From the sequence record SRR31156797_15625: DNA of 39,068 bases, one strand, 5' to 3'. Below, one piece after another: positions 6,631 through 38,919 of this stretch (positions are counted from its first letter, which is position 1; every line of letters starts with the position of its first letter). The notes under the pieces were generated by a model. The model had not been told where the DNA came from. It was given only the letters and a program-made list of their open reading frames with translations, and did not search any database. The translations under genes and the position numbers were made by a program.

Positions 6631-7806
6631 CTAACTGAGCCTAACTTGAGTCGGTTTTATGTTCTCACTTGGGTAGCAACCTAGCACTTTTAGATGTTTG
6701 GTCAGTTTTGTGAGTTCATTGAGCGCTTGCTGCATGTTTTCAGAATCAAGATGCGCTTCTAAGTCTACATAAAACATCTCTTCCCAAGGGTTCCCCATAA
6801 TAGGACGAGATTCTAACTTGGTCATATTAATGCCCAGACGTTGCAGCACTAAAAGGGTTGAAACCAGTGATCCCGCCTCTTGAGAGGTGGACATTATCAG
6901 CGTCGTTTTTGCGGGGATTTGTGTTGACACTTCAACCGGTTTACGCGCCACAAGAATAAAGCGGGTATGGTTTTCGGTTTGGTTAGCAATGTTGCCCTGA
7001 ATGGCTTGTAAACCGTACAACTTTCCACTTGATGCATTACCGATGGCCGCGACATCATCGCGATTCATTTGCTGAACTTTTTTCATCGCATCAGCAGTAC
7101 TTGCGCAACTTTCCAGCTTTACGCCCTCTAAACGACTTAAGAACTCGCTACACTGTTGGTGTGGTTGTGGGTGTGAATAGAGTACTTTTAAGTTTTCTAA
7201 TCGAATGTCTTTAGTTGCAACGAGGCAGTGTTCAATTGGCTGGGTGATTTCACCAACGATGTATAACGTTGTGTGCTGTAACAGGTCGTAAACTTCATTG
7301 ATTGAACCTGAGCTGGTATTTTCAATCGGTAAAACACCATAATCAGCGTGACCTGATTCAACGGTTTTGGTGACTTCTTTGAACTGATCGCAATTGAGTT
7401 CCACAAGCTCTGTATTGCGACGGCTAAAGTATTCGCGCGTGGCTAAGTGAGAATAAGAGCCTTTAGAACCTAAGAACGCAACACGGGCTAGAGGTTTACG
7501 ACTCTGTGGGTTCGCGAGATTTTGTAGGTATGCTTGTTGCAGCAATACTGAATCTTCAATGATAGTGTGGAAGATTTTTGTGATGTATTGAGCATCCAGC
7601 TCATATTTGTCTTTACCAGAGTTGATCAGTTTTACCAGCAGTTGTTGTTCGCGAACGGCATCACGAACGGGTTTGGATGTTTCAACTTTGCTTTTGGCGA
7701 CTTCAATACTGAGCTGGCGACGCTCGGAAAGTAGGCTTAGCAATTGGTCATCAAGTTCATTGAGTCTCAAGCGAATCTCATCAAGAGAGTACTGTCTGTC
7801 TGTCAT
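6631..7806 (-). CDS. pheA: Chorismate mutase/prephenate dehydratase (P-protein)
   Basis: N-terminal CM domain, GVLPIENTSSGSI, NHTRF, ACT domain with LESRP; ATG 7806 preceded by TAAGGA. Confidence 0.96.
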   Translation of the reverse strand: MTDRQYSLDEIRLRLNELDDQLLSLLSERRQLSIEVAKSKVETSKPVRDAVREQQLLVKLINSGKDKYELDAQYITKIFHTIIEDSVLLQQAYLQNLANPQSRKPLARVAFLGSKGSYSHLATREYFSRRNTELVELNCDQFKEVTKTVESGHADYGVLPIENTSSGSINEVYDLLQHTTLYIVGEITQPIEHCLVATKDIRLENLKVLYSHPQPHQQCSEFLSRLEGVKLESCASTADAMKKVQQMNRDDVAAIGNASSGKLYGLQAIQGNIANQTENHTRFILVARKPVEVSTQIPAKTTLIMSTSQEAGSLVSTLLVLQRLGINMTKLESRPIMGNPWEEMFYVDLEAHLDSENMQQALNELTKLTKHLKVLGCYPSENIKPTQVRLS

Positions 7807-7821
7807 TAGAATTATCCTTAT

Positions 7822-7844
7822 AAAAAAACCTCCCATTGGGAGGC
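7822..7844 (-). terminator. pheA attenuator terminator
   Basis: GCCTCCC-AAT-GGGAGG-TTTTTTT on the minus strand between leader peptide and pheA. Confidence 0.88.
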
Positions 7845-7893
7845 TTTCTGTTCGTTTTTGACTTTTCTTTCTTAAACGACTGAGCCTCCAAAA

Positions 7894-7941
7894 TTATTGG
7901 AGAAAAAAGAAGTCAAAAAAGAACATTTGTGTATTGGTCAT
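7894..7941 (-). CDS. pheL: pheA leader peptide MTNTQMFFFDFFFLQ
   Basis: 15-codon ORF with six Phe codons, followed by the attenuator hairpin. Confidence 0.9.
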   Translation of the reverse strand: MTNTQMFFFDFFFLQ

Positions 7942-14265: not shown

Positions 14266-15364
14266 ATGTTTGAAATCAATCCAATTAAAAACCGCATGCA
14301 GGATGTGTCAGAGCGCACAAATATCCTGAGGGGGTACCTTTGACTATGACGCTAAGAAAGAGCGTCTAGAAGAAGTTAACGCAGAATTAGAACAACCCGA
14401 TGTATGGAACGAACCTGAGCGTGCACAAGCGCTGGGTAAAGAGCGTTCATCATTAGAAGCGGTTGTTGAAACTATCGATCAGCTAGATCAAGGTGTTGAA
14501 GACGTTGAAGGTCTTCTTGAACTGGCTGTAGAAGAAGAAGATCAAGAAACATTTGATGAAATCGAACCTGAATTAGCGGAATTAGAAGCTAAGTTAGAGA
14601 AACTTGAATTCCGTCGAATGTTTGCTGGTGATCACGACTCATCGGATTGCTACATCGACCTTCAGTCTGGCTCTGGTGGTACAGAAGCACAAGATTGGAC
14701 TTCAATGATGTTACGCATGTACTTGCGCTGGGCTGAAGCTAAGGGCTTCAAAACAGAAGTGATTGAAGTTTCTGAAGGTGAAGTCGCAGGCCTTAAGTCT
14801 GCAACTGTTCGTATTGTGGGTGACTACGCTTACGGTTGGCTACGCACTGAAACAGGCGTTCACCGTTTGGTTCGTAAGTCTCCGTTCGATTCGGGTGGCC
14901 GTCGTCATACTTCTTTTGCCTCTGCGTTTATCTACCCAGAAGTGGATGACAATATTGCGATTGATATCAACCCAGCGGATCTGCGTATTGACGTATATCG
15001 TGCATCGGGTGCGGGTGGTCAGCACGTGAACACCACCGAATCTGCGGTACGTATTACTCACTTACCAACCAACACAGTGGTACAGTGTCAGAATGACCGC
15101 TCTCAGCACAAGAACAAAGATCAGGCCATGAAACAGCTTCGTGCGAAATTGTTTGAGCTTGAACTACAAAAGCAAAATGCTGAGAAGCAAGCGAATGAAG
15201 ACGCGAAATCTGACATCGGTTGGGGTAGCCAAATTCGCTCATACGTACTAGATGATTCTAGAATTAAAGATTTACGCACCGGCGTAGAAAACCGTAACAC
15301 TCAAGCGGTTCTTGACGGTGACTTAGACAAATTTATTGAAGCTAGCCTGAAATCAGGCCTGTAA
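14266..15364 (+). CDS. prfB: Peptide chain release factor 2 with programmed +1 frameshift (join 14266..14340,14342..15364; 365 aa)
   Basis: [14 protein letters not shown], then CTT-TGA-C at 14338-14344 preceded by internal SD AGGGGG; the +1 frame carries SPF and GGQ motifs. Confidence 0.97.
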
Positions 15365-17154: not shown

Positions 17155-18486
17155 ATGGGTAATCAGTTCCGGATGGACTCTGTACCAGGTTCATTGATTG
17201 TCGTTGGTGGTACATACGAACCCTGGCTATCTGTTTTAGAGCAAGTCGGATGGAGATGCACTCAGTGTGCGGACTTACGTCAGGCAGATACATTGTTCGC
17301 AGAAACAGGGCCTTGTATTGGTATTGTCGATCTTTGTCATGATGAGTTTAGTTTAAATGGTATTGCGAACTTGGTGAGTAATCACAAGCAAGTTCGTTGG
17401 CTAGCATTTATTCGTGAATCTCAACTAAGCTCAGATACTATCTGCCAGTTTATTGTGAACTTCTGTATCGACTTTTTTACCGCGCCAATTCCAGATGCAC
17501 AGTTACTTAGCACCATTGGCCACCAGTTGGGCATGTTGAAGTTAGAGAAAAAGGTTTGGCCGCATTATGGGTCAAACAGTGATATGGGACTTATCGGTGA
17601 ATCAATTCCAATCAAGCGACTGCGCGATCAGATAAAACGTATTGGCCCAACGGACGTGAGTATTCTGATTTACGGAGAAAACGGTACAGGTAAAGAAACT
17701 GTAGCGAAAGCCATTCATAAAACGTCAGCTCGTGCACAAAAACCGTTTTTCTCAGTTAACTGTCGTGCACTGTCTGAAAACCGTCTCGAGTGTGAGCTGT
17801 TTGGTATTGGCTCAGATTGCGATGATAAACCCATTTTATTGCAAGCGGACGGTGGTACGGTTCTACTCAATGATATTTTGACGCTTCCAAAGAGTCAGCA
17901 GCTTAACCTGCTGCGTTTTCTCCAAGAAGGTACGGTTGAAACTAAGAATGGCATTCAGGAAGTGGATGTGCGAATTCTGGCAGCAAACTCATCCGATATA
18001 GAGAAAGCTTTGATTGATGGAAACTTCAACGAAGAGCTATACCACTATATCAATGTGCTGCGTATTAACGTACCAAGCTTGAAAGAAAGGGCTGGTGATA
18101 TTTTGATATTGGCTCGTCATTTCTTGCAAGAATATTCGAAAGAGTACAATGCACAGGCTCGTAGCTTTTCTGAAGAAGCGGCTCGTTCGTTAACCCGTTA
18201 TCATTGGCCAGGTAATGTTCGCGAGTTAATGAATCAGATAAAACGCATTGTACTTATGTCTGATAGCGTTGTGATTGAAGAAGAGCGCTTAGAGCTACCA
18301 AAACGCAGTGATGGAAAACGTAGCTTGAAGAGTATCCGTGAGCGTTCAGAGCGTGATGCGTTGTTACTGGTTTTAGAATCTTATTCTGGGCAGGTTTCTG
18401 TAGCGGCAAAAGAACTTGGAGTGTCACGCGCAACCATGTATCGGCTGCTGAATAAGCATAACTTAATTACGGACACGACGTACTAA
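17155..18486 (+). CDS. vpsR: c-di-GMP-responsive atypical enhancer-binding regulator VpsR/CpsR
   Basis: N-terminus QFRMDSVPGSLIVVGGTYEPWL; AAA+ with GENGTGKE but no GAFTGA; Fis-type HTH; downstream of lysS. Confidence 0.92.
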   Translation: MGNQFRMDSVPGSLIVVGGTYEPWLSVLEQVGWRCTQCADLRQADTLFAETGPCIGIVDLCHDEFSLNGIANLVSNHKQVRWLAFIRESQLSSDTICQFIVNFCIDFFTAPIPDAQLLSTIGHQLGMLKLEKKVWPHYGSNSDMGLIGESIPIKRLRDQIKRIGPTDVSILIYGENGTGKETVAKAIHKTSARAQKPFFSVNCRALSENRLECELFGIGSDCDDKPILLQADGGTVLLNDILTLPKSQQLNLLRFLQEGTVETKNGIQEVDVRILAANSSDIEKALIDGNFNEELYHYINVLRINVPSLKERAGDILILARHFLQEYSKEYNAQARSFSEEAARSLTRYHWPGNVRELMNQIKRIVLMSDSVVIEEERLELPKRSDGKRSLKSIRERSERDALLLVLESYSGQVSVAAKELGVSRATMYRLLNKHNLITDTTY

Positions 18487-29954: not shown

Positions 29955-29999
29955 TACTTAACGTTAATGTTTATCTCAGTTGAGGTTAGGAAGGTTGTT

Positions 30000-32573
30000 A
30001 TGCGTCTCGACAGATTTACCAGTAAATTCCAGATAGCAATTTCTGACGCCCAGTCACTCGCACTCGGGCGAGATCATCAATATATTGAACCTGTGCACTT
30101 GATGGTTGCGCTGCTTGATCAAAACGGCAGCCCAATTCGTCCACTGCTAACCATGCTTGACGTAGATGTCATGCAGCTTCGTTCCAAATTGGGCGAGACG
30201 CTTGATCGTCTACCAAAAGTGAGCGGGATTGGTGGTGATGTACAGCTTTCCAGTGCTTTAGGTACTTTGTTCAACCTGTGTGACAAAGTGGCTCAAAAGC
30301 GTCAAGACTCTTATATATCTTCTGAAATTTATCTTTTAGCGGCGATTGAAGATCGTGGTCCGCTAGGTCAAATCCTTAAAGAGTTTGGTCTGAATGAAAA
30401 GAAAGTCTCAGACGCTATTGAGAAGATCCGTGGTGGTCAGAAAGTCAATAACCCGAACGCGGAAGAACTTCGTCAGGCTTTAGAAAAATTTACTATCGAT
30501 CTTACTGAACGAGCAGAGCAGGGGAAGCTTGATCCTGTTATCGGTCGTGATGATGAGATCCGTAGAACGATCCAGGTATTGCAACGTCGTACTAAAAACA
30601 ATCCGGTGATCATTGGAGAACCGGGCGTAGGTAAAACGGCGATTGTTGAAGGTTTAGCACAGCGTATTATCAATAACGAAGTGCCAGAAGGACTTCGTGG
30701 ACGTCGCGTACTCTCTTTAGATATGGGTGCGTTAGTTGCGGGAGCGAAATACCGTGGTGAGTTTGAAGAACGTTTGAAATCGGTACTGAATGAGTTGGCC
30801 AAAGAAGAAGGTAACATCATTCTGTTTATCGATGAGCTTCATACTATGGTGGGTGCAGGTAAAGGCGAAGGCTCAATGGATGCCGGTAACATGCTGAAAC
30901 CTGCTCTTGCTCGTGGTGAGCTTCACTGTGTCGGTGCGACCACGCTCGACGAATACCGTCAGTACATTGAGAAAGATCCGGCCCTTGAACGCCGCTTCCA
31001 AAAAGTACTGGTGGATGAGCCAAGCGTTGAAGATACCATTGCGATTCTGCGTGGGTTGAAAGAGCGTTACGAACTTCACCACCATGTGGAAATTACTGAC
31101 CCTGCGATTGTATCGGCGGCGACTTTGTCTCACCGATATGTTTCGGATCGCCAGTTACCCGATAAAGCGATCGATCTGATAGATGAAGCAGCATCCAGTA
31201 TTCGTATCCAAATCGATTCCAAACCAGAAGAGTTGGATCGACTAGAACGTCGCATTATTCAGCTGAAGATCGAACAGCAAGCATTATCTAAAGAGCACGA
31301 TGAAGCGAGTGAAAAGCGCTTAAAAATTCTCAACGAAGATCTTGGTGAGAAAGAGCGCGAATATGCAGAGCTGGAAGAGGTTTGGAAAACGGAAAAAGCA
31401 GCGTTGTCTGGTACACAACATATTAAAGCCGAGCTTGATCAAGCTCGGATGGATATGGATGTTGCACGACGTGCTGGCGACTTAAACCGTATGTCAGAAC
31501 TGCAATATGGTCGAATTCCTGAGTTGGAGAAACAACTCGATTTGGCTGCACAGGCAGAAATGCAGGAAATGACACTGCTACGTAATAAAGTGACGGATAC
31601 TGAAATTGCCGAAGTTCTTTCTAAGCAAACCGGTATTCCTGTCTCTAAAATGCTTGAAGCAGAGAAAGAGAAGCTGCTTCGCATGGAAGATGTGCTGCAT
31701 AAACGCGTTATCGGTCAGGTAGAAGCGGTTGAAGTGGTATCCAATGCAATTCGCCGTAGCCGTGCCGGATTATCTGATCCAAACAAACCGATTGGCTCAT
31801 TCCTATTCTTAGGTCCAACTGGTGTCGGTAAAACCGAACTTTGTAAAACACTGGCGCACTTTATGTTTGATAGTGAAGATGCCATGGTGCGTATCGATAT
31901 GTCAGAGTTTATGGAGAAACACTCTGTGGCCCGTCTGGTCGGTGCGCCTCCAGGTTATGTCGGTTATGAAGAAGGCGGTTATTTAACAGAAGCGGTTCGT
32001 CGTAAACCTTATTCCGTAATCTTGCTTGATGAGGTTGAGAAAGCGCATCCGGATGTGTTCAACATCTTGCTCCAAGTTCTGGATGATGGTCGTTTAACGG
32101 ATGGTCAGGGTCGTACTGTTGATTTCCGTAATACGGTAGTCATCATGACGTCGAACTTAGGTTCAGCCAGTATTCAGGAAAACTTCGCGTCTTTGGATTA
32201 TCAAGGTATCAAAGAGCGAGTGATGGAAACGGTAAGTAAGCACTTCCGTCCAGAGTTCCTGAACCGTGTTGATGAAAGTGTCGTCTTCCATCCGCTTGGC
32301 AGAGAACACATCAAGTCGATTGCTTCTATTCAGCTGGAACGTCTACATAAACGTCTGGCTGATAAAGAGTACGACCTTGAAGTGAGCGAGGATGCACTGG
32401 ACTTGATAGCTCAGGTTGGTTTTGATCCGGTTTATGGTGCTCGTCCGTTGAAACGTGCTATTCAGCAAAATATTGAGAACCCTTTGGCGAAGTCAATTTT
32501 GTCAGGTCAGTTCTTACCCGGAAAACCTATAAGTCTGGGTGTTCGGGACGGCAATATCATCGCCAGCCAATAA
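30000..32573 (+). CDS. clpB: ATP-dependent disaggregase ClpB (857 aa)
   Basis: MRLDRFT start; two AAA+ modules ([16 protein letters not shown]) with a coiled-coil middle domain. Confidence 0.97.
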
Positions 32574-32577
32574 TAAG

Positions 32578-32604
32578 AAAAGCCATGCGAAAGCATGGCT
32601 TTTT
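32578..32604. terminator. clpB terminator (probably bidirectional)
   Basis: AAAAGCCATGC-GAAA-GCATGGCTTTTT; a second hairpin at 32617-32650 follows the oxygenase stop. Confidence 0.88.
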
Positions 32605-32660: not shown

Positions 32661-33644
32661 TTAAGAGAAGTTCGCGTTTATACGCATTTTCAAATAATCC
32701 TGCGCAGTAATTGGTTCGTAAACTTTCTTTGGTCCTTGGATAATCTGATCACGGTTAGCCTGACAGAAGAACGCCATGCTGTAGCGTGAATCTTGATTTT
32801 CCTCTGGAGTAGGCATACGTACACGGTGCAGCGTTGATTTCAATAAATCATCACTCCAACGCATTAACATATCACCGATATTACAACTGATAACGCCAGC
32901 TTTCGGTTCTACTGCGCTCCAAACCAAATTTTCTTTCGCATCTTTACCGGCTGCCGCTTGCAAGCCACCTTGGTTTTCCTGCTGGAATACCATGGTCAGA
33001 CAGTCAAAGTCTGTATGAGCGCCAGCACGCCAGAATTTACCTTCAGCCGGCACCTCTTTCATCGGCAAGTAGTGCAGCATACGTAAAGTGCTCAGATAGT
33101 TTTCTGATTCTCTGTCGTGCGCTTTAGTAAAGAAGTCGCGTTCAAAGCCAAGTTTGTCAGCAAAGCATGACAGGATTTTCATGCCTAGCTTCCAAGCCTG
33201 ATGTTCGAATGAGCGTAGATGGGATTCATAGTCTTCAACCTGTTCATTACTTGGCCATAAATCTTCCATGTGTGGCAAGGTAATTTGGTAAGACTCTTTT
33301 TGATCTGCGGTACCTGTGGAAGGACGAACTTGTTGTTTAAACTCCCAACCAGCATTTAAGCCTTCTTTTAAAGGAAACTGCTCTTTTACTTCTTTTGGTA
33401 GAGAAAAGAATTCTTCGCTCAGCTTAAAGGATTTTTCAATATCAGCTAAAGAAATACCGTGGTCAACTAACTGGAAAAAGCCTACTTGAGTTGCTGCTTC
33501 CCACAGTTGTTCAGTGATTTCTTCGCGTCGGTTATCGAAATCGTTCAAGTTGATCATTGGGATCACGGTATCGTTGGCTTCTAAACCTTGTCCACCAATG
33601 GTTGTTTCAAAGTTAAGTTCGTCTAAAAGGTATGATTGAGTCAT
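32661..33644 (-). CDS. Isopenicillin-N-synthase-family 2OG-Fe(II) oxygenase
   Basis: IPMINL..GFFQLVDHGI N-domain; HTD...H triad (AHTDFD, STLHRV); RYS motif; ATG 33644 follows GGAG. Confidence 0.9.
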   Translation of the reverse strand: MTQSYLLDELNFETTIGGQGLEANDTVIPMINLNDFDNRREEITEQLWEAATQVGFFQLVDHGISLADIEKSFKLSEEFFSLPKEVKEQFPLKEGLNAGWEFKQQVRPSTGTADQKESYQITLPHMEDLWPSNEQVEDYESHLRSFEHQAWKLGMKILSCFADKLGFERDFFTKAHDRESENYLSTLRMLHYLPMKEVPAEGKFWRAGAHTDFDCLTMVFQQENQGGLQAAAGKDAKENLVWSAVEPKAGVISCNIGDMLMRWSDDLLKSTLHRVRMPTPEENQDSRYSMAFFCQANRDQIIQGPKKVYEPITAQDYLKMRINANFS

Positions 33645-33677
33645 TGTTTTTCTCCAATTAAGCAATTGCTTGTTATT

Positions 33678-33739
33678 GGAGCAATGTCCAGCAATAGCTC
33701 AAGAATCCAATCCTTGGTATTACAGACCGCTTCTACTCC
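33678..33739 (-). ncRNA. Xanthine-I (NMT1 motif) riboswitch aptamer, copy 1, before the oxygenase
   Basis: GGAGUAGAAGCGGUC-[extended hairpin]-GGACAUUGCUCC; P1 GGAGUA/UGCUCC. Confidence 0.85.
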
Positions 33740-33788
33740 GTGCTTTTACTCTTTATTTGAGTAAATCTAAACTTTTAAGATGAAGTTG

Positions 33789-34265
33789 CTACCACACTCC
33801 GTGTTGTACTTTCTCTGCCTCGTCTTCAAGTAAGGGGCCGATGACTTCAACGTCGCGCTGGCCTGATTCAAAAACTGTGCGGCATGGCAGTGCAAGAGTG
33901 GGGTTCTCTGGGTGATTACCGGTTAGCTCTTTAAGTTTCGCTTCGCTTAGTCCGTAAACTATTCGTCCTACGCCCGCCCAGTAGATGGCGCCGGCACACA
34001 TTGCACAAGGTTCTGCTGAAATGTACAAGGTGCATCGATTAAGAAAGTCGGGGCGAAACATCTTACTCGCGCGTGTCATAATTAGGCGTTCAGCATGCCC
34101 CGTCATATCGAGATCCGGCAAGTATCCGTTAATTTGTTCCAGTAACACTTCACCGTGTTCATCAACCAGTACAGCTGAGAAAGGGTGAATACCGTTGGTT
34201 TTGGCCTCTTCCGCTAGGGCAAATGTGTAGCGCAACAGTTTAAAATCAGTTTGTTCATTCAGCAT
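33789..34265 (-). CDS. Cytidine-deaminase-fold nucleoside/nucleobase deaminase (guanine deaminase-like)
   Basis: HAE and EPCAMC zinc motifs; AIYWAG. Confidence 0.85.
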   Translation of the reverse strand: MLNEQTDFKLLRYTFALAEEAKTNGIHPFSAVLVDEHGEVLLEQINGYLPDLDMTGHAERLIMTRASKMFRPDFLNRCTLYISAEPCAMCAGAIYWAGVGRIVYGLSEAKLKELTGNHPENPTLALPCRTVFESGQRDVEVIGPLLEDEAEKVQHGVW

Positions 34266-34274
34266 TGAGCGTTC

Positions 34275-35057
34275 CTACCTTTGTTTTTCTTCTTCTGTCA
34301 GGCTCCAAGAGAAGAACCCTTTTTGTACCCAGTTCACCGATTTAAATAGCAACATACTGACTAACGATAAGAAAACCAGTGCTGCAAAGGCTTGTGGAAT
34401 TTTGAAATAGGACGTTGAGAACTGAACTAAGTATCCAAGGCCTTTTTCTGCCGCGACGAACTCAGCAATAACCGAGCCGATAACCGCTAAAGTAATCGCC
34501 ACTTTTACGCCACTGAAAATATGAGGGATCGCATACGGAAGGCGTATTTGCCAAATTGTTTTACTGTTTTTCACACTCAGTGAGCGTGATAGTTCAATCA
34601 GCTCTGGTGGTGTCGCTAACATCCCCGTTGTTGCAGAAACCACAAGTGGAAAGAAGGTAATTAGGCACGTGATAGTGAGGCGTGGTGCATCACCGGTCCC
34701 CAAAATCACAATAAGTAGAGGAGCGATCGCTACAACGGGAGTGGACTGGATAATCACAAGAATCGGGAACAAGGCTTTAGTCAAAAATTTTGAGTTAACC
34801 ATCATGATTGCTAAAGGAATACTGATCATAAAAGAGATAGCAAACCCAAGTAGCGCGATTCGTAATGTTGCCCATAGATTATCTAACCAACGTTCCATTG
34901 AAACCTGACTGAATGCTAAAGCAATATCACTCGGTGCTGGCAGGATAAATGTTGGAACAGAAAAGGCACGGCAAATTGCTTCCCAAATAGGGATGATGGC
35001 TAATATCGCTAGCAAAGGTAGCCAATTCTGTGAAAGTTTAGAAAAATACTGTTTCAT
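34275..35057 (-). CDS. NitT/TauT-family ABC transporter permease
   Basis: ILPAPSDI, TPVVAIAPL, IAEFVAAEKGLG; ATG 35057 follows AAGGA (ORF open to 35075). Confidence 0.9.
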   Translation of the reverse strand: MKQYFSKLSQNWLPLLAILAIIPIWEAICRAFSVPTFILPAPSDIALAFSQVSMERWLDNLWATLRIALLGFAISFMISIPLAIMMVNSKFLTKALFPILVIIQSTPVVAIAPLLIVILGTGDAPRLTITCLITFFPLVVSATTGMLATPPELIELSRSLSVKNSKTIWQIRLPYAIPHIFSGVKVAITLAVIGSVIAEFVAAEKGLGYLVQFSTSYFKIPQAFAALVFLSLVSMLLFKSVNWVQKGFFSWSLTEEEKQR

Positions 35058-35081
35058 ATCTATTCCTTTAGACACTTTTCA

Positions 35082-35909
35082 TTAAGCGACCGTTTTACGG
35101 ATAGGCTCAACGTTGTCCTGATCTTTGCTTTCTGGATCACTACTTTTTTCTGAACGATAGAAGTATTCGCGAATCTTATTGGTGTAAGAACCGAACTTAG
35201 GATCCTGCAATGTATGAATATCTCTTGGACGAGGTAAATCCACTTTGATTTCCTCCAGTACCGTACTTGGGCGTGGGCCCATAACCAGTACTTTGTCTGC
35301 AAGTAACACCGCTTCTGAGATTGAGTGAGTAATGAATAGAACCGTCTTAGGCTTTTCCATCCAGATTTTCTGCAGCTCAAACCCCATTTCTTCACGGGTT
35401 AATGCGTCTAATGCTGAGAAAGGTTCATCCATGATCAAAATATCTGGATTCAGTAACAGAGCGCGAGCGATACCCACCCGTTGCTGCATACCGCCAGATA
35501 GCAGATCCGGCATACTGCTTTCAAAGCCCGCTAAACCGACCATATCAAGCAGCTTTCTTGCGTTATTTTGTTCTTTCTTACTTACATAGTTGAACTTGTG
35601 TTTAAGAGGGAACAGCACATTGTCCAGGATATTTTTCCAGGGAAGCAGTGTTGGTTTTTGAAAAACAATGCCGATATCTTCACGTGGACCAGTAACTGGG
35701 TGACCAAAAACCGAAATCTCACCCTGAGTCGGTGTAATTAACCCTGACAGTAGGCGCAGCAAGGTAGACTTGCCGCAACCTGAAGGACCAACGATGGCGA
35801 CGAACTCATGCTTTTCAACATTGAAGTCGACATCGTTGAGAACCGTAACCGAATGTTTGTCAGAGTTATAGGTATGACCTATACGCTTGAACGAAACAAA
35901 TGGTTGCAT
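35082..35909 (-). CDS. NitT/TauT-family ABC transporter ATPase
   Basis: GPSGCGKS, LLPW, LSGGMQQR, MDEPFSALD, ITHS. Confidence 0.93.
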   Translation of the reverse strand: MQPFVSFKRIGHTYNSDKHSVTVLNDVDFNVEKHEFVAIVGPSGCGKSTLLRLLSGLITPTQGEISVFGHPVTGPREDIGIVFQKPTLLPWKNILDNVLFPLKHKFNYVSKKEQNNARKLLDMVGLAGFESSMPDLLSGGMQQRVGIARALLLNPDILIMDEPFSALDALTREEMGFELQKIWMEKPKTVLFITHSISEAVLLADKVLVMGPRPSTVLEEIKVDLPRPRDIHTLQDPKFGSYTNKIREYFYRSEKSSDPESKDQDNVEPIRKTVA

Positions 35910-36910
35910 TAGTTCACTCCCTGGAAGAACTGACGATCAACCGCAGTTTCTGGGTCGAGTTTGTTGATATCTAGACCTTGAGCTTCTGCTGTCCATTTCC
36001 ACGTTTCGTTTAGACGAGATGGAGTGAAGCTACCCACACCGTCGCGTTTAGACACTTCGTTTAGAACTAAGCCGTGAATAGATTTAATTGTGTCGCTTGC
36101 TTGAGCTGAATCCACTTCTGGAACCATTTTTGTTACATCTGCGCCACTTTCTTCTGGGTGAGCCCAAGTGTATTCAACCGCTTTTGCGTAAGCTTTTACA
36201 AAGCGCTTAACGATATCTGGATTTTCAGACATGAACTTATCGCTTGCGATAATCGATGATGAATAGAACTCTAGGCCAGCATCGTACCAAGGTAGAACGT
36301 TAAGTTTTTTACCCGCTTGCGCAGCTTGCTGTTCGTTCTTAACGCGGTCTGTCATCCATGAGATCATGACATCAGACTGACCGGTAATTAGCATAGGGTT
36401 TAGAGCACCTGGATCTGCTTTAAGAACCTTTACGTCTTTCTCATCAACGCCGTTTTTCTTAAGCATCAGAGGAAGGAATACGTTTGCTGAAGTAAACGGA
36501 GAGGTAACAACTGTTTTGCCTGATACGTCTTCTACAGAATCGATACCTGAATCGTTTAATACATAAAAAGCATAAGGTGCTTTACTGAAAAGAGAGTAGA
36601 TAGCCTTTACAGGCACATTGTCATTTGCTTTTGCGACTAATAGTGCAACGATATCTGCAGAGCCAATATCCGCTGTACCAGTGGCGATTTTTGTAATAGC
36701 GTCTGTCGAACCTTTACCGCCAAGAATAGTGACATCTAAGTCTTCATCAGCGAAAAATCCTTGTTGTACGCCGACATAAACAGGAGCTTTATCACCGCCT
36801 GGTAACCAGTCAAGCTGGAAAGTGACTTTATCAGCGGCAAAGCTACTTGCAGATGCACAAAGCATAGATAGTGCTAGGCTGAGTTTGTTGAATTTAGAAA
36901 TAGTTTTCAT
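35909..36910 (-). CDS. NMT1/THI5-like ABC substrate-binding protein
   Basis: Signal peptide, VTFQLDWLP..APVYVG..GFFADEDLDV, YSSSII; ATG 36910 follows GGAG (ORF open to GTG 36934). Confidence 0.88.
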   Translation of the reverse strand: MKTISKFNKLSLALSMLCASASSFAADKVTFQLDWLPGGDKAPVYVGVQQGFFADEDLDVTILGGKGSTDAITKIATGTADIGSADIVALLVAKANDNVPVKAIYSLFSKAPYAFYVLNDSGIDSVEDVSGKTVVTSPFTSANVFLPLMLKKNGVDEKDVKVLKADPGALNPMLITGQSDVMISWMTDRVKNEQQAAQAGKKLNVLPWYDAGLEFYSSSIIASDKFMSENPDIVKRFVKAYAKAVEYTWAHPEESGADVTKMVPEVDSAQASDTIKSIHGLVLNEVSKRDGVGSFTPSRLNETWKWTAEAQGLDINKLDPETAVDRQFFQGVN

Positions 36911-36977
36911 AGTTACTCCGTGTCTTCCTTTCACTGAAAAGTGCTGTCTATGTTGACGGCATCTTTTACGCTAACTA

Positions 36978-37024
36978 TGAGCAATGTCCCGATACCTGAC
37001 TTAGTACCTAACCGCTTCTACTCA
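36978..37024 (-). ncRNA. Xanthine-I (NMT1 motif) riboswitch aptamer, copy 2, before the ABC operon
   Basis: UGAGUAGAAGCGGUUA-GGUAC/GUAUC hairpin-GGGACAUUGCUCA. Confidence 0.85.
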
Positions 37025-37044
37025 CATTTCCTGATTATGAGTAG

Positions 37045-37060
37045 AGCAAAGCTTGTGCCA
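37045..37060 (-). promoter_or_regulatory. Sigma54 -24/-12 promoter for the ABC operon
   Basis: TGGCAC-AAGCT-TTGCT on the minus strand; predicted start about 37034, just before aptamer copy 2. Confidence 0.8.
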
Positions 37061-37148
37061 TAAAATTAAAATTGTTGAAACTATCATTAACTACTGACTA
37101 ACGAACTGTTAACACAAAAGGGTTCGCTTAAATAATGAAACCGATCTT

Positions 37149-37160
37149 TTTGTATACAAA
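37149..37160. promoter_or_regulatory. GntR/FadR-type operator palindrome
   Basis: Perfect palindrome TTTGTATACAAA; second copy at 37300. Confidence 0.5.
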
Positions 37161-37195
37161 TAAAAGCGGAATATTGACTGGGTGTCGTATGTAAA

Positions 37196-37232
37196 TGCAC
37201 CTTTGTAATGCATTTCACACCAAATTGGTTCA
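37196..37232. promoter_or_regulatory. Tandem NtrC-like enhancer sites
   Basis: TGCACCTTTGTAATGCA (37196-37212) and CACACCAAATTGGTTCA (37216-37232) vs TGCACCA-N3-TGGTGCA. Confidence 0.65.
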
Positions 37233-37283
37233 ATCTAGTTCGATTAGTAGTGAGGGTAAGCTATAGGAGTAAGGGGTTTCTGA

Positions 37284-37299
37284 TGGTCTGTAATTTGCA
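37284..37299 (+). promoter_or_regulatory. Sigma54 -24/-12 promoter for the amidohydrolase
   Basis: TGGTCT-GTAAT-TTGCA with exact GG-N10-GC spacing; predicted start about 37310. Confidence 0.6.
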
Positions 37300-37309
37300 T
37301 TGTATACAG
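37300..37309. promoter_or_regulatory. Second GntR/FadR-type operator abutting the -12 element
   Basis: TTGTATACAG, 9/10 identical to the 37150 site. Confidence 0.45.
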
Positions 37310-37342
37310 AAATGATCATCAAACTGTTTGATGATATGTAAG

Positions 37343-37387
37343 TGAGTAGAAGCGGTTAGGAGTAAAGGGACTCTGGGACATTGCTCA
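37343..37387 (+). ncRNA. Xanthine-I (NMT1 motif) riboswitch aptamer, copy 3, before the amidohydrolase
   Basis: UGAGUAGAAGCGGUUA-GGAGU/ACUCU hairpin-GGGACAUUGCUCA. Confidence 0.85.
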
Positions 37388-37435
37388 ATGGTTAGCAGAT
37401 CGGCTGTAAGGCTGTTGATGTAAAGGGAAGTCTCA

Positions 37436-38803
37436 ATGAATTATATAATAAAAAATGCCAACGGAATTTTCTGTGCACAGCAAGATGCAAAAGATATTCG
37501 AGTACACAATGGCGTTATTAAAGAGCTAGGGAAAGAGCTAGTTCCTTTTCAGGGGGAAGAAGTCATTGATGCCAGCAACTGCGTTGTCTACCCCGGCTTT
37601 GTGAATACACATCATCATATTGCACAATCCATCTTGAAAGGTATTCCAGCAGGCATTAATGATGGACTCGGAGATTGGTTGGCAAGTGTACCTTATCGCT
37701 ACTGGCCTCAAATCACGCCTGAAATTATGTATTCAGCTGCAAAACTCGGTTTCTACGAGCTGTTGCGTTCCGGCGCAACGACTTGCGCAGATCATCATTA
37801 TTTGTATCACGCTAACTCAACACAAGAGTTAGAGGATGCGGTATGGCAAGCTGCTGATGAGATGGGTATACGTATAGTCCTTTGTCGGGGCGGCGCAACG
37901 GTAAAAGGAACGCATAAAGGTTTAGCGAAAGCAGGCGTAGAACCTGAATCGGCAGAGATGATGATTGAGCGTTTGGAAAGTACCCGTAGTCGTTATCATC
38001 AAGAAGGTGCGATGGCGATGCGTAAGCTGGTGGTCGCTCCTACAACTATTGCTCACTCATCGACGCCAAGTGACCTGCGACTGTTATCTGAATACGCAAG
38101 AAGTCAAAAGCTAAGAATGCATTCACATATGCTGGAAGTTGATTTCGATAATGAACAGTCTTTAGCAAAATATGGAAAAGGGATTGTTGAGTTCGCAGAA
38201 AGTTGTGGCTGGCTAGGTGAAGACGTTTGGTTTGCACATTTGGTTAAAGCGACAGAACAAGACGTTAAGCTACTAGCGGAAACAAAAACCGGTATTGCTC
38301 ACTGTCCAACATCCAATTGTCGATTGGGTAGTGGTATTGCACCTGTCATTAACATGGCTAAAGCTGGAATGCCGATATCTATCGGTGTAGACGGTTCCGC
38401 TTCTGCTGAATCAGGTTCAATGCTTCAAGAGCTGAATCTGACTTGGTTATTACACAGAACTCAACATGGGCCTAAAGCTACGACGTTAGAACAAGTATTA
38501 GAGTGGGGGACTAAAGGTGGTGCTGAGATGTTAGGTCTTGAAAGTGTCGGAACAATAAAAGAAGGTTTCGCGGCAGACTTCGTTTTATACGATATTAATC
38601 AGCCACGCTTATCCGGTTGCCATGATACTTTGATGTCACCGCTAATGGCCGGAGAGCCTTCTTATATTAAGGCGAGTTTTGTTAACGGTAAAATTGTGTA
38701 TCGACATAGTGAAGAAGACCAATATCAGTATTTAGTCTCTGAAGTGCGTGAAGCAATCACAAAACTGAATAAGCGAGTTTCAGCTTTAGAAGCTAGAAGC
38801 TAG
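37436..38803 (+). CDS. Metal-dependent amidohydrolase, isoxanthopterin/8-oxoguanine-deaminase-like
   Basis: VNTHHHIAQSILKG, RGGAT, VVAPTT, RMHSH..E, VWFAHLVK, HCPTSNCRLGSG, GVDGSAS. Confidence 0.85.
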   Translation: MNYIIKNANGIFCAQQDAKDIRVHNGVIKELGKELVPFQGEEVIDASNCVVYPGFVNTHHHIAQSILKGIPAGINDGLGDWLASVPYRYWPQITPEIMYSAAKLGFYELLRSGATTCADHHYLYHANSTQELEDAVWQAADEMGIRIVLCRGGATVKGTHKGLAKAGVEPESAEMMIERLESTRSRYHQEGAMAMRKLVVAPTTIAHSSTPSDLRLLSEYARSQKLRMHSHMLEVDFDNEQSLAKYGKGIVEFAESCGWLGEDVWFAHLVKATEQDVKLLAETKTGIAHCPTSNCRLGSGIAPVINMAKAGMPISIGVDGSASAESGSMLQELNLTWLLHRTQHGPKATTLEQVLEWGTKGGAEMLGLESVGTIKEGFAADFVLYDINQPRLSGCHDTLMSPLMAGEPSYIKASFVNGKIVYRHSEEDQYQYLVSEVREAITKLNKRVSALEARS

Positions 38804-38883: not shown

Positions 38884-38919
38884 TTGCCAACTCTTTTTTC
38901 CTCCCTATAATGCGCCTCC
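38884..38919 (+). promoter_or_regulatory. rRNA operon P1-type promoter
   Basis: TTGCCA-N16-TATAAT-GCGCCTCC, including the CTCCCTATAATGCGCC signature of rrn P1. Confidence 0.88.

Follow-up and report, generated by a model that had tools for sequence, protein, structure and literature searches.

A likely accessory branch of purine catabolism in a Vibrio member of the xanthine-I riboswitch regulon, with conserved sigma54/NtrC-type promoters

What does a bacterium gain from a gene cluster that joins an importer, two unrelated deaminases, and an oxygenase under three riboswitch aptamers? The question is raised by positions 32661–38803 of sequence record SRR31156797_15625, a stretch of 39,068 nucleotides that we refer to, at its full length, as the window. 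The cluster is a Vibrio member of the published xanthine-I riboswitch regulon, and it is most likely an accessory branch feeding non-canonical aminopurines into xanthine/urate catabolism. A preliminary description, based on the letters alone, had read the cluster as an undescribed system that scavenges nitrogen from purines or pterins. Its observations are confirmed: the importer, both deaminases, the 2-oxoglutarate (2OG)-Fe(II) oxygenase, and all three aptamers are recovered by Pfam, NCBIfam, and Rfam, and the promoter and operator motifs that it named are present and conserved. Its interpretation is partly supported, and the word “undescribed” has to be given up, because both the ligand and this exact gene association have been published (Weinberg 2017, PMC5737381; Yu and Breaker 2020, PMC7373994). 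What the present analysis adds is the conserved sigma54/NtrC coupling, the link of a GntR/FCD operator to the purine/allantoin regulon, and the ON-type architecture of the leaders.

Open reading frame (ORF) calls and Pfam/NCBIfam profiles resolve the locus into two divergent transcription units with six genes. The minus-strand unit runs from the substrate-binding protein (SBP) through ATPase, permease, and cytidine deaminase (CDA)-fold deaminase to the 2OG oxygenase, with an aptamer placed before the last gene, and the plus-strand unit is the single gene of a PRK12393 amidohydrolase. The genes and aptamers are as follows.

32661–33644, minus strand: PcbC/IPNS-like 2OG-Fe(II) oxygenase, 327 aa (Pfam PF14226 and PF03171)
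33789–34265, minus strand: CDA-fold zinc deaminase, 158 aa (PF00383)
34275–35075, minus strand: ABC permease (PF00528)
35082–35909, minus strand: ABC ATPase (PF00005)
35909–36910, minus strand: periplasmic NMT1/THI5-type SBP (PF09084, 161.7 bits)
37436–38803, plus strand: PRK12393 amidohydrolase, subtype III deaminase fold, 455 aa (NF009059)
37339–37391, plus strand: xanthine-I aptamer 1, in the amidohydrolase leader (RF03054, 47.8 bits)
36974–37028, minus strand: xanthine-I aptamer 2, in the ABC operon leader (RF03054, 45.2 bits)
33674–33743, minus strand: xanthine-I aptamer 3, operon-internal, directly before the oxygenase gene (RF03054, 42.4 bits)

All three aptamers exceed the RF03054 gathering score of 36 bits over the full model (positions 1–56) and carry the junction nucleotides of the class (GAAGCGG; GG-GA-CAU), with P1 and P2 stems of variable sequence. 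Across 14 Vibrio aptamers AGTAGAAGCG and GACATTGCTC are invariant, while P2b varies. The motif was first described in 2017 as the NMT1 motif (Weinberg et al., PMC5737381), in association with just these gene classes, as the preliminary description had stated. It binds xanthine and urate and rejects thiamine-related compounds, and the authors called the NMT1 annotation misleading (PMC7373994). With the published regulon the locus shares the RF03054 aptamer, the pcbC-type dioxygenase, the NMT1/tauA SBP, the PRK12393 amidohydrolase, and the tadA-like deaminase, as well as divergent paired aptamers and translational control; the enzymes are likewise uncharacterised in the published work. According to the accessible text of that study, Rieske HpxDE-type oxygenases also fall under the class, and all genes tied to it act upstream of xanthine/urate (PMC7373994). 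The locus differs in that the published class is described as OFF, whereas the leaders here look ON-type. Control by sigma54/NtrC or GntR is not mentioned in the accessible part of the Yu and Breaker text, our literature listings gave no statement on sigma54 coupling to the class, and they returned nothing relevant to a characterised pathway for the module. In Thalassolituus-type loci two same-strand aptamers stand in tandem before the oxygenase gene (L047 8791–8970; L049 8756–8954) and may form a tandem riboswitch.

Is the locus under nitrogen control? Sigma54 promoters follow the consensus TGGCAC-N5-TTGCW, with GG and GC doublets 10 nt apart, and NtrC sites the consensus TGCACC-N4-TGGTGCA. 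Scans with these strings gave the following elements in the spacer between the two units.

37060–37045, minus strand: sigma54 −24/−12 element of the ABC-cda-oxygenase operon, TGGCACaagctTTGCT, 0 mismatches
37284–37299, plus strand: sigma54 −24/−12 element of the amidohydrolase gene, TGGTCTgtaatTTGCA (TGGTCT..TTGCA), 3 mismatches
37196–37212 (11/13) and 37216–37232 (10/13), no strand assigned: two adjacent NtrC-like 17-mers matching the consensus, putative shared upstream activating sites

The ABC-side element is the sole 0-mismatch match to the sigma54 consensus in the 39 kb and lies 17 nt upstream of the ABC-side aptamer. Its amidohydrolase-side counterpart is not significant alone, as the window holds 165 matches at ≤3 mismatches vs. 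179.5 expected. Upstream of each outer aptamer, TGG-N9-TGC recurs in the correct orientation at 5/5 loci (the window and four Vibrio relatives); this result comes from a pattern scan, used in place of a MAFFT spacer alignment that misplaced the amidohydrolase-side element in relatives G019 and G022 and missed the ABC-side element in G022. NtrC-like hits number 10 in 39 kb, counting both strands, and 4 of these—two sites, each on both strands—fall within the 500-bp spacer, where 0.13 would be expected. Such 17-mers, scoring at least 10/13, lie between the promoters in all five Vibrio loci, and for calibration the glnA upstream regions of three relatives contain NtrC-like sites of equal quality. 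Sigma70 promoters in the spacer are unsupported (11 found vs. 11.4 expected).

How widely does this promoter arrangement accompany the riboswitch? A larger sample of 80 loci, fetched via the oxygenase, yielded 133 aptamers in 73 loci with a fuzzy pattern, and a sigma54-type element lies 5–90 nt upstream of 80 of them, against a background of 0.04 per 70 nt. By downstream gene, the element is found at 20/24 aptamers before an SBP gene, 32/37 before an amidohydrolase gene, 13/52 before an oxygenase gene (this class being mostly operon-internal), 9/14 before other genes, and 6/6 with no gene. A second set, picked by the aptamer alone, has it at 55/124 non-overlapping aptamers. NtrC-like sites are present in 30/33 divergent spacers of other loci, with 73 sites vs. 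5.9 expected. The two promoters and the NtrC-like sites of the preliminary description are thus conserved in all five Vibrio loci and widely in other Proteobacteria, a pattern that lends support to its proposal of nitrogen control and to an NtrC-type protein as the putative activator of both promoters. In Burkholderia and Ralstonia, transcription of genes for purine catabolism is documented to depend on NtrC and sigma54, so nitrogen control is ordinary for genes of this kind. For specialists, the point to take away, if confirmed, is that sigma54/NtrC-type promoters very often accompany the xanthine-I class.

Does a second regulator act on the same spacer? Two further palindromic boxes lie there.

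37150–37159, no strand assigned: TTGTATACAA box 1, putative GntR/FCD operator, a palindrome common to purine/allantoin loci of relatives
37300–37309, no strand assigned: TTGTATACAG box 2, putative GntR/FCD operator, directly next to the −12 element and spanning the expected start of transcription

At the same positions TTGTATACA boxes occur in 6/33 divergent spacers of the oxygenase-locus set, all from Vibrio, and in 0/27 others (background 0.022 per kb). Genome-wide in four relatives, matches to ATTGTATACAAT with ≤1 mismatch are enriched relative to a reversed control (13 v 4, 14 v 6, 18 v 4, and 6 v 2). In G001 and G018 the interval between a GntR/FCD gene and an NCS1 permease gene contains exact ATTGTATACAAT matches, with two in G018. 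Upstream of BMP-SBP-xdhABC-uraD, G001 has a further copy with one mismatch, and G019 has exact copies between hiuH and puuE-uraD-ureidoglycolate lyase-puuD, at a xanthine/uracil permease gene, and at gcl/malate synthase. Because the copies sit at the GntR/FCD gene itself and at purine/allantoin loci, the earlier label of “GntR-type operators” is well supported, and comparison among relatives likewise argues well for a GntR/FCD purine/allantoin regulon, with a trans-encoded regulator, of which the box is the putative operator. That neither xanthine dehydrogenase (XDH) nor uricase nor a regulator is encoded inside the cluster, as first noted, is thus correct in cis; for the regulator it does not carry over to genes encoded in trans. 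The GntR/FCD regulator of the relatives reached no NCBIfam equivalog. A TetR/RutR-like gene beside xdh in G001 was also considered as the source of the box-binding regulator and was dropped, since the GntR/FCD gene's own promoter has exact boxes in two genomes. Beside that xdh locus (L027 3008–9079) G001 also has a urea carboxylase-associated set with an ABC transporter, a DUF5718 gene, and the RutR-like TetR gene. In G019 the glyoxylate copy (L034, ~4174) lies between glyoxylate carboligase-like and malate synthase genes and would widen the putative regulon to glyoxylate metabolism.

Which compounds might the enzymes handle? The oxygenase has the DIOX_N and 2OG-FeII_Oxy domains, the iron triad, and the 2OG site of 2OG-Fe(II) enzymes of the IPNS/DIOX_N type, and its H210, D212, and H273 (HxD...H) and R287 and S289 (RxS) are invariant in 18 orthologues. 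Thymine-7-hydroxylase is its best PDB match by sequence (E 4e-25, 27–28% identity) and, for a model with a predicted local distance difference test (pLDDT) of 87, its best fold match (Foldseek E 4e-23, TM 0.75), with other IPNS-type enzymes scoring almost as well. The Neurospora thymine-7-hydroxylase (5C3P-5C3S) is itself a nucleobase-oxidising 2OG enzyme, but it is eukaryotic, distant at that level of identity, and acts on the methyl group of a pyrimidine. These likenesses suggest hydroxylation or oxidative demethylation of a nucleobase as the reaction of the oxygenase. Only PF14226 and PF03171 match it at E ≤0.001, with no TauD/TfdA domain. The fungal xanthine dioxygenase XanA, by comparison, is of the TauD type.

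The amidohydrolase passes a single NCBIfam model, NF009059 (PRK12393; 595.1 bits vs. a cut-off of 543), a family without an assigned function. Its PDB matches are 2PAJ (E 4e-105), which it resembles overall and which we take to be an isoxanthopterin deaminase, 3HPA (8e-81), and the 8-oxoguanine deaminase 7WW2 (6e-77). NMT1-linked amidohydrolases were placed in an “ambiguous” group near these deaminases (Weinberg 2017, PMC5737381), and related amidohydrolases are described, in the accessible part of the source, as hydrolysing N2,N2-dimethylguanine. The second deaminase has the HAE and PCxxC motifs and fails the TadA model NF008113 (60.3 vs. 150 bits). Its best solved relative, Msd of Mycobacterium smegmatis (8WLW/5XKO), shares this zinc site, but the match is only moderate (E 5e-21 over ~128 residues), and the gene is dispensable in close relatives, being present in the window and G019, whereas the clusters of G001 and G018, collinear in other respects, lack it. 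Isoguanine and 5-azacytosine are deaminated by Msd, and guanine and cytosine are not (PMC11963756); deamination of isoguanine would, on chemical grounds, give xanthine. The SBP, which with the adjoining permease and ATPase makes up an NMT1/THI5-type ABC importer, has 4NMY and ThiY (3IX1) as its best PDB matches. By their kinship with Msd and with 8-oxoguanine and isoxanthopterin deaminases, the two deaminases are supported as candidates for aminated or oxidised purine- or pterin-like bases, in line with the preliminary description, and the gene families together suggest a module that would convert non-canonical aminated purine-like bases to xanthine or urate.

How does the module relate to canonical purine catabolism? 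Within the genus, XdhB and OHCU decarboxylase co-occur in the same 16 of 25 genomes, including all four that carry the cluster. Of the 80 oxygenase loci, 28 have xdh, puuD, uraD, or hiuH, all canonical genes of purine catabolism, no more than 9 kb away, the counts by family being xdhB 21, xdhA 19, xdhC 13, PuuD 10, UraD 9, and HIUase 9; HpxO (9/80) and a true guanine deaminase (18/80) stand outside this tally. Xanthine oxidation, urate oxidation, and guanine deamination are therefore already covered next door, and with a true GuaD beside the module the amidohydrolase is not GuaD. An amidohydrolase accompanies the oxygenase in 50 of the 80 loci, a CDA deaminase in 28, either in 66, and both in 12, and ABC components in 46–51. 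The conserved core, on these pairings, is one oxygenase with at least one special deaminase. A class-wide search for the oxygenase at E ≤1e-70 found it in 1/301 genomes, too sparse for a co-occurrence test.

In which direction do the riboswitches act? In each of the three leaders of the window, the P1 3′ strand can pair with the Shine–Dalgarno (SD) or start region of the gene, and P1 and the helix masking the SD or start are mutually exclusive. In the oxygenase leader, CUCCAAU, made up of the last part of the P1 3′ strand and its flank, is complementary to the SD AUUGGAG, and in the SBP leader UCAUAGUUA pairs with the start-codon region UAACUAUGA. We folded leaders thermodynamically with the aptamer pairs enforced and counted a gain when accessibility of the SD or AUG rose by >0.1. 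The enforced aptamer opened the SD or AUG in 12/14 Vibrio leaders, with no rise in two. In the oxygenase-locus set, subtracting 6 aptamers without a gene and 23 with leaders too long left 104 of the 133; accessibility rose in 62 and fell in 2, compared with 28 up and 7 down among 208 chimeras in which the aptamer was joined to an unrelated start with an SD, taken from the same set of loci. When the folded stretch included 5′ flank of 20 or 40 nt, 62 or 55 rose and 3 fell (n = 109). Short leaders contain explicit UGCUCU:AGGAGCA pairings. Because the P1 3′ strand is the anti-SD, these foldings predict ON-type switches, a direction that we consider probable. This architecture conflicts with the single published assay, which is of another representative. 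The earlier proposal that expression would require the ligand accordingly has in silico folding on its side and the published reporter assay, which says OFF, against it.

What mechanism would join these parts? In the following scheme NtrC as activator, the direction of the switches (ON), the substrates, and the sequence of enzymatic steps are what we infer. Under nitrogen limitation, an NtrC-type activator would bind the two spacer sites and switch on both sigma54 promoters, that of the amidohydrolase gene and that of the SBP-ATPase-permease-CDA deaminase-oxygenase operon. In the Vibrio clade, a trans-encoded GntR/FCD repressor of the purine/allantoin regulon would add a second gate through the two TTGTATACA boxes, one of which covers −12/+1 of the amidohydrolase promoter. 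Each of the three translation starts would stay masked by pairing with the P1 3′ strand until xanthine or urate binds and locks P1, which would expose the SD or AUG. The ABC system would import a non-canonical aminated purine-like base, with 8-oxoguanine, isoguanine, N-methylguanines, and isoxanthopterin-type compounds as candidates; the two deaminases would release ammonium, and the 2OG oxygenase would act on the base or its deaminated product, by hydroxylation or oxidative demethylation. The resulting xanthine/urate would enter the XDH/urate/allantoin pathway encoded elsewhere and would also reinforce translation. As a whole explanation, such a nitrogen-scavenging branch under NtrC/sigma54, GntR/FCD, and ON-riboswitch control seems to us somewhat better than an even prospect.

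Several points count against this account. In the window, one of the two NtrC-like sites, the second, is degenerate (10/13). The presence of NtrC, XDH, and the GntR/FCD regulator is extrapolated from relatives, and a different activator may serve both promoters: a sigma54-type, enhancer-binding-protein-like response regulator gene, below every NCBIfam cut-off, lies in the window itself (17155–18486, plus strand), where it adjoins prfB-lysS 19 kb from the cluster. The amidohydrolase fails the models of 8-oxoguanine deaminase (NF006055, 383.7 vs. 532 bits) and guanine deaminase (TIGR02967, 121 vs. 375.4 bits). The ON call comes from thermodynamic predictions with enforced pairs on related sequences that are not independent; opening of the SD goes with a less accessible AUG in 3 of the 12 Vibrio leaders counted as gains, and in the aptamer-selected set 28 leaders rise and 6 fall of 92, most being neutral, with 9 and 6 in the controls. 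Finally, OFF behavior has been reported from one Hydrogenophaga leader in Escherichia coli (PMC7373994), and later papers repeat the claim.

How do other explanations compare? The published logic, applied to the same module, would have the enzymes make xanthine/urate and the three switches, acting OFF, provide negative feedback on an NtrC-induced pathway. It has the reporter result behind it—wild-type expression below that of the aptamer-core mutant M4—together with the authors' rationale, the repetition of the claim in later literature, and the position of all associated genes upstream of xanthine/urate (PMC7373994). The evidence, however, concerns a single representative in a heterologous host, and no added ligand or ligand titration is described in the accessible text. 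The anti-SD role of the P1 3′ strand in the window and in most orthologous leaders means that a stable P1 should open the SD, and only 2–3 of 104–109 leaders are predicted to close. We regard negative feedback as unlikely, though it is the strongest of the competing accounts. The tested Hydrogenophaga leader, sought as a folding control, was not among the 80 of 120 aptamer-selected stretches listed. Another role, which takes up the molybdenum-independent oxygenase of the preliminary description, would be that of a 2OG-dependent xanthine/hypoxanthine hydroxylase serving as a substitute or backup for the molybdenum enzyme. A xanthine-sensing ON switch immediately ahead of the oxygenase gene would suit induction by the substrate, and in fungi XDH is accompanied by a 2OG-dependent xanthine hydroxylase. 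Oxygenases of the Rieske HpxDE type also belong to the riboswitch class (PMC7373994). Yet XDH is found in all four carriers and adjoins the oxygenase in 21/80 loci, together with PuuD or HpxO, and a deaminase partner, present in 66/80 loci, would be superfluous for xanthine; the protein, moreover, is of the IPNS/DIOX_N type with no TauD-family match. With a canonical XDH at hand in the carriers and nearby, the oxygenase is not a molybdenum-independent substitute for it, and the hydroxylase role in its broader form is improbable. The Klebsiella hpx system (Riva et al. 2008, via the accessible text of PMC7373994) is comparable in using purine bases as a nitrogen source under nitrogen regulation, with a non-molybdenum oxygenase in purine oxidation. 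It differs in that HpxDE is a Rieske two-component enzyme, not a 2OG enzyme, and in having no riboswitch; in the Vibrio relatives, XDH is present as well.

Sanitation rather than nutrition would be a further role, with the module removing mutagenic oxidised purines such as 8-oxoguanine and isoguanine, as in Paenibacillus. The nearest characterised deaminase relatives do act on mutagenic bases, and there is a precedent in an 8-oxoguanine riboswitch joined to an 8-oxoguanine deaminase (PMC10556655). Like the locus here, the Paenibacillaceae system places a riboswitch for a purine derivative before an amidohydrolase of the 8-oxoguanine group, follows ON logic, and yields urate. Unlike it, that system uses a guanine-I variant fold, senses the substrate and not the product, has no importer, oxygenase, or nitrogen control, and is proposed to dispose of damage. 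A periplasmic ABC importer of the high-affinity type, sigma54/NtrC-type promoters in place of oxidative-stress control, membership in the purine/allantoin regulon, and the position of the module inside catabolic loci of other genera all speak for nutrition, leaving sanitation only a slight chance. Uptake of the thiamine pyrimidine hydroxymethylpyrimidine (HMP) or of sulfonates, as the NMT1/THI5 and SsuA/TauA-like annotations would have it, deserves almost no credence: the Pfam NMT1 match and a weak similarity to SsuA, TauA, and ThiY point that way, but the SBP falls far below the cut-offs of all NCBIfam transport equivalogs, the riboswitch rejects thiamine-related compounds (PMC7373994), and the neighbors are purine genes.

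What would follow if the accessory-branch account held more broadly? A bolder version, which we put forward tentatively and judge distinctly less probable than the account for this locus, is a widespread branch of catabolism for purines altered by modification or damage, for instance guanines or adenines that have been methylated or oxidised and are released in nucleic-acid turnover, with a new nucleobase-directed 2OG oxygenase and a gate that would require both nitrogen limitation and an ON riboswitch. If it were true, the published OFF assignment would fail for most of the xanthine-I class. The more limited message for specialists, if confirmed, is that the leaders are built as ON switches, contrary to the single published assay. 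The genes behind xanthine-I riboswitches share 58–92% identity across marine Gamma- and Alphaproteobacteria, yet from 2017 on no reaction has been assigned to their products. With importer, both deaminases, and oxygenase in one place, this locus is a compact and genetically tractable example, and its regulatory anatomy points to the assay conditions: nitrogen limitation and a purine catabolite.

The surroundings of the cluster are housekeeping DNA, as is the window outside it, with clpB (29967–32573) on one side and an rrn-type promoter on the other. The assignment to Vibrio comes from the names of homologues. One further feature closes the minus-strand unit.

32578–32603, minus strand: terminator hairpin 3′ of the oxygenase gene, common to the convergent clpB, with an 11-bp stem, 5 GC pairs, and a T tail

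Aptamers were found in 4 of 25 same-genus genomes, with the same gene order as in the window, and the cluster adjoins clpB in three of these four carriers as well. In G022, where it is not beside clpB, a second, distant oxygenase paralogue (30% identity) directly follows the first (L016 11568–12509). The oxygenase gene starts at the ATG at 33644, which has a GGAGA SD; the ORF list's TTG at 33665 was rejected as too near the aptamer. The SBP gene starts at the ATG at 36910, behind a GGAG SD, whereas the ORF list extends it to a GTG at 36934. Just past the cluster, at 38884–38911 on the plus strand, there is a near-consensus sigma70 promoter (11/12) with an rrn P1-like discriminator, and related contigs stop near this region, as at an rRNA operon. 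Elsewhere in the window, a Phe leader (RF01859, 83.5 bits; 7820–7939, minus strand) lies upstream of pheA (6631–7836). The match to release factor RF2 (prfB; 14618–15364, plus strand) begins at profile position 108, so the N-terminal part must be encoded in a different frame, in keeping with the programmed frameshift that is known.

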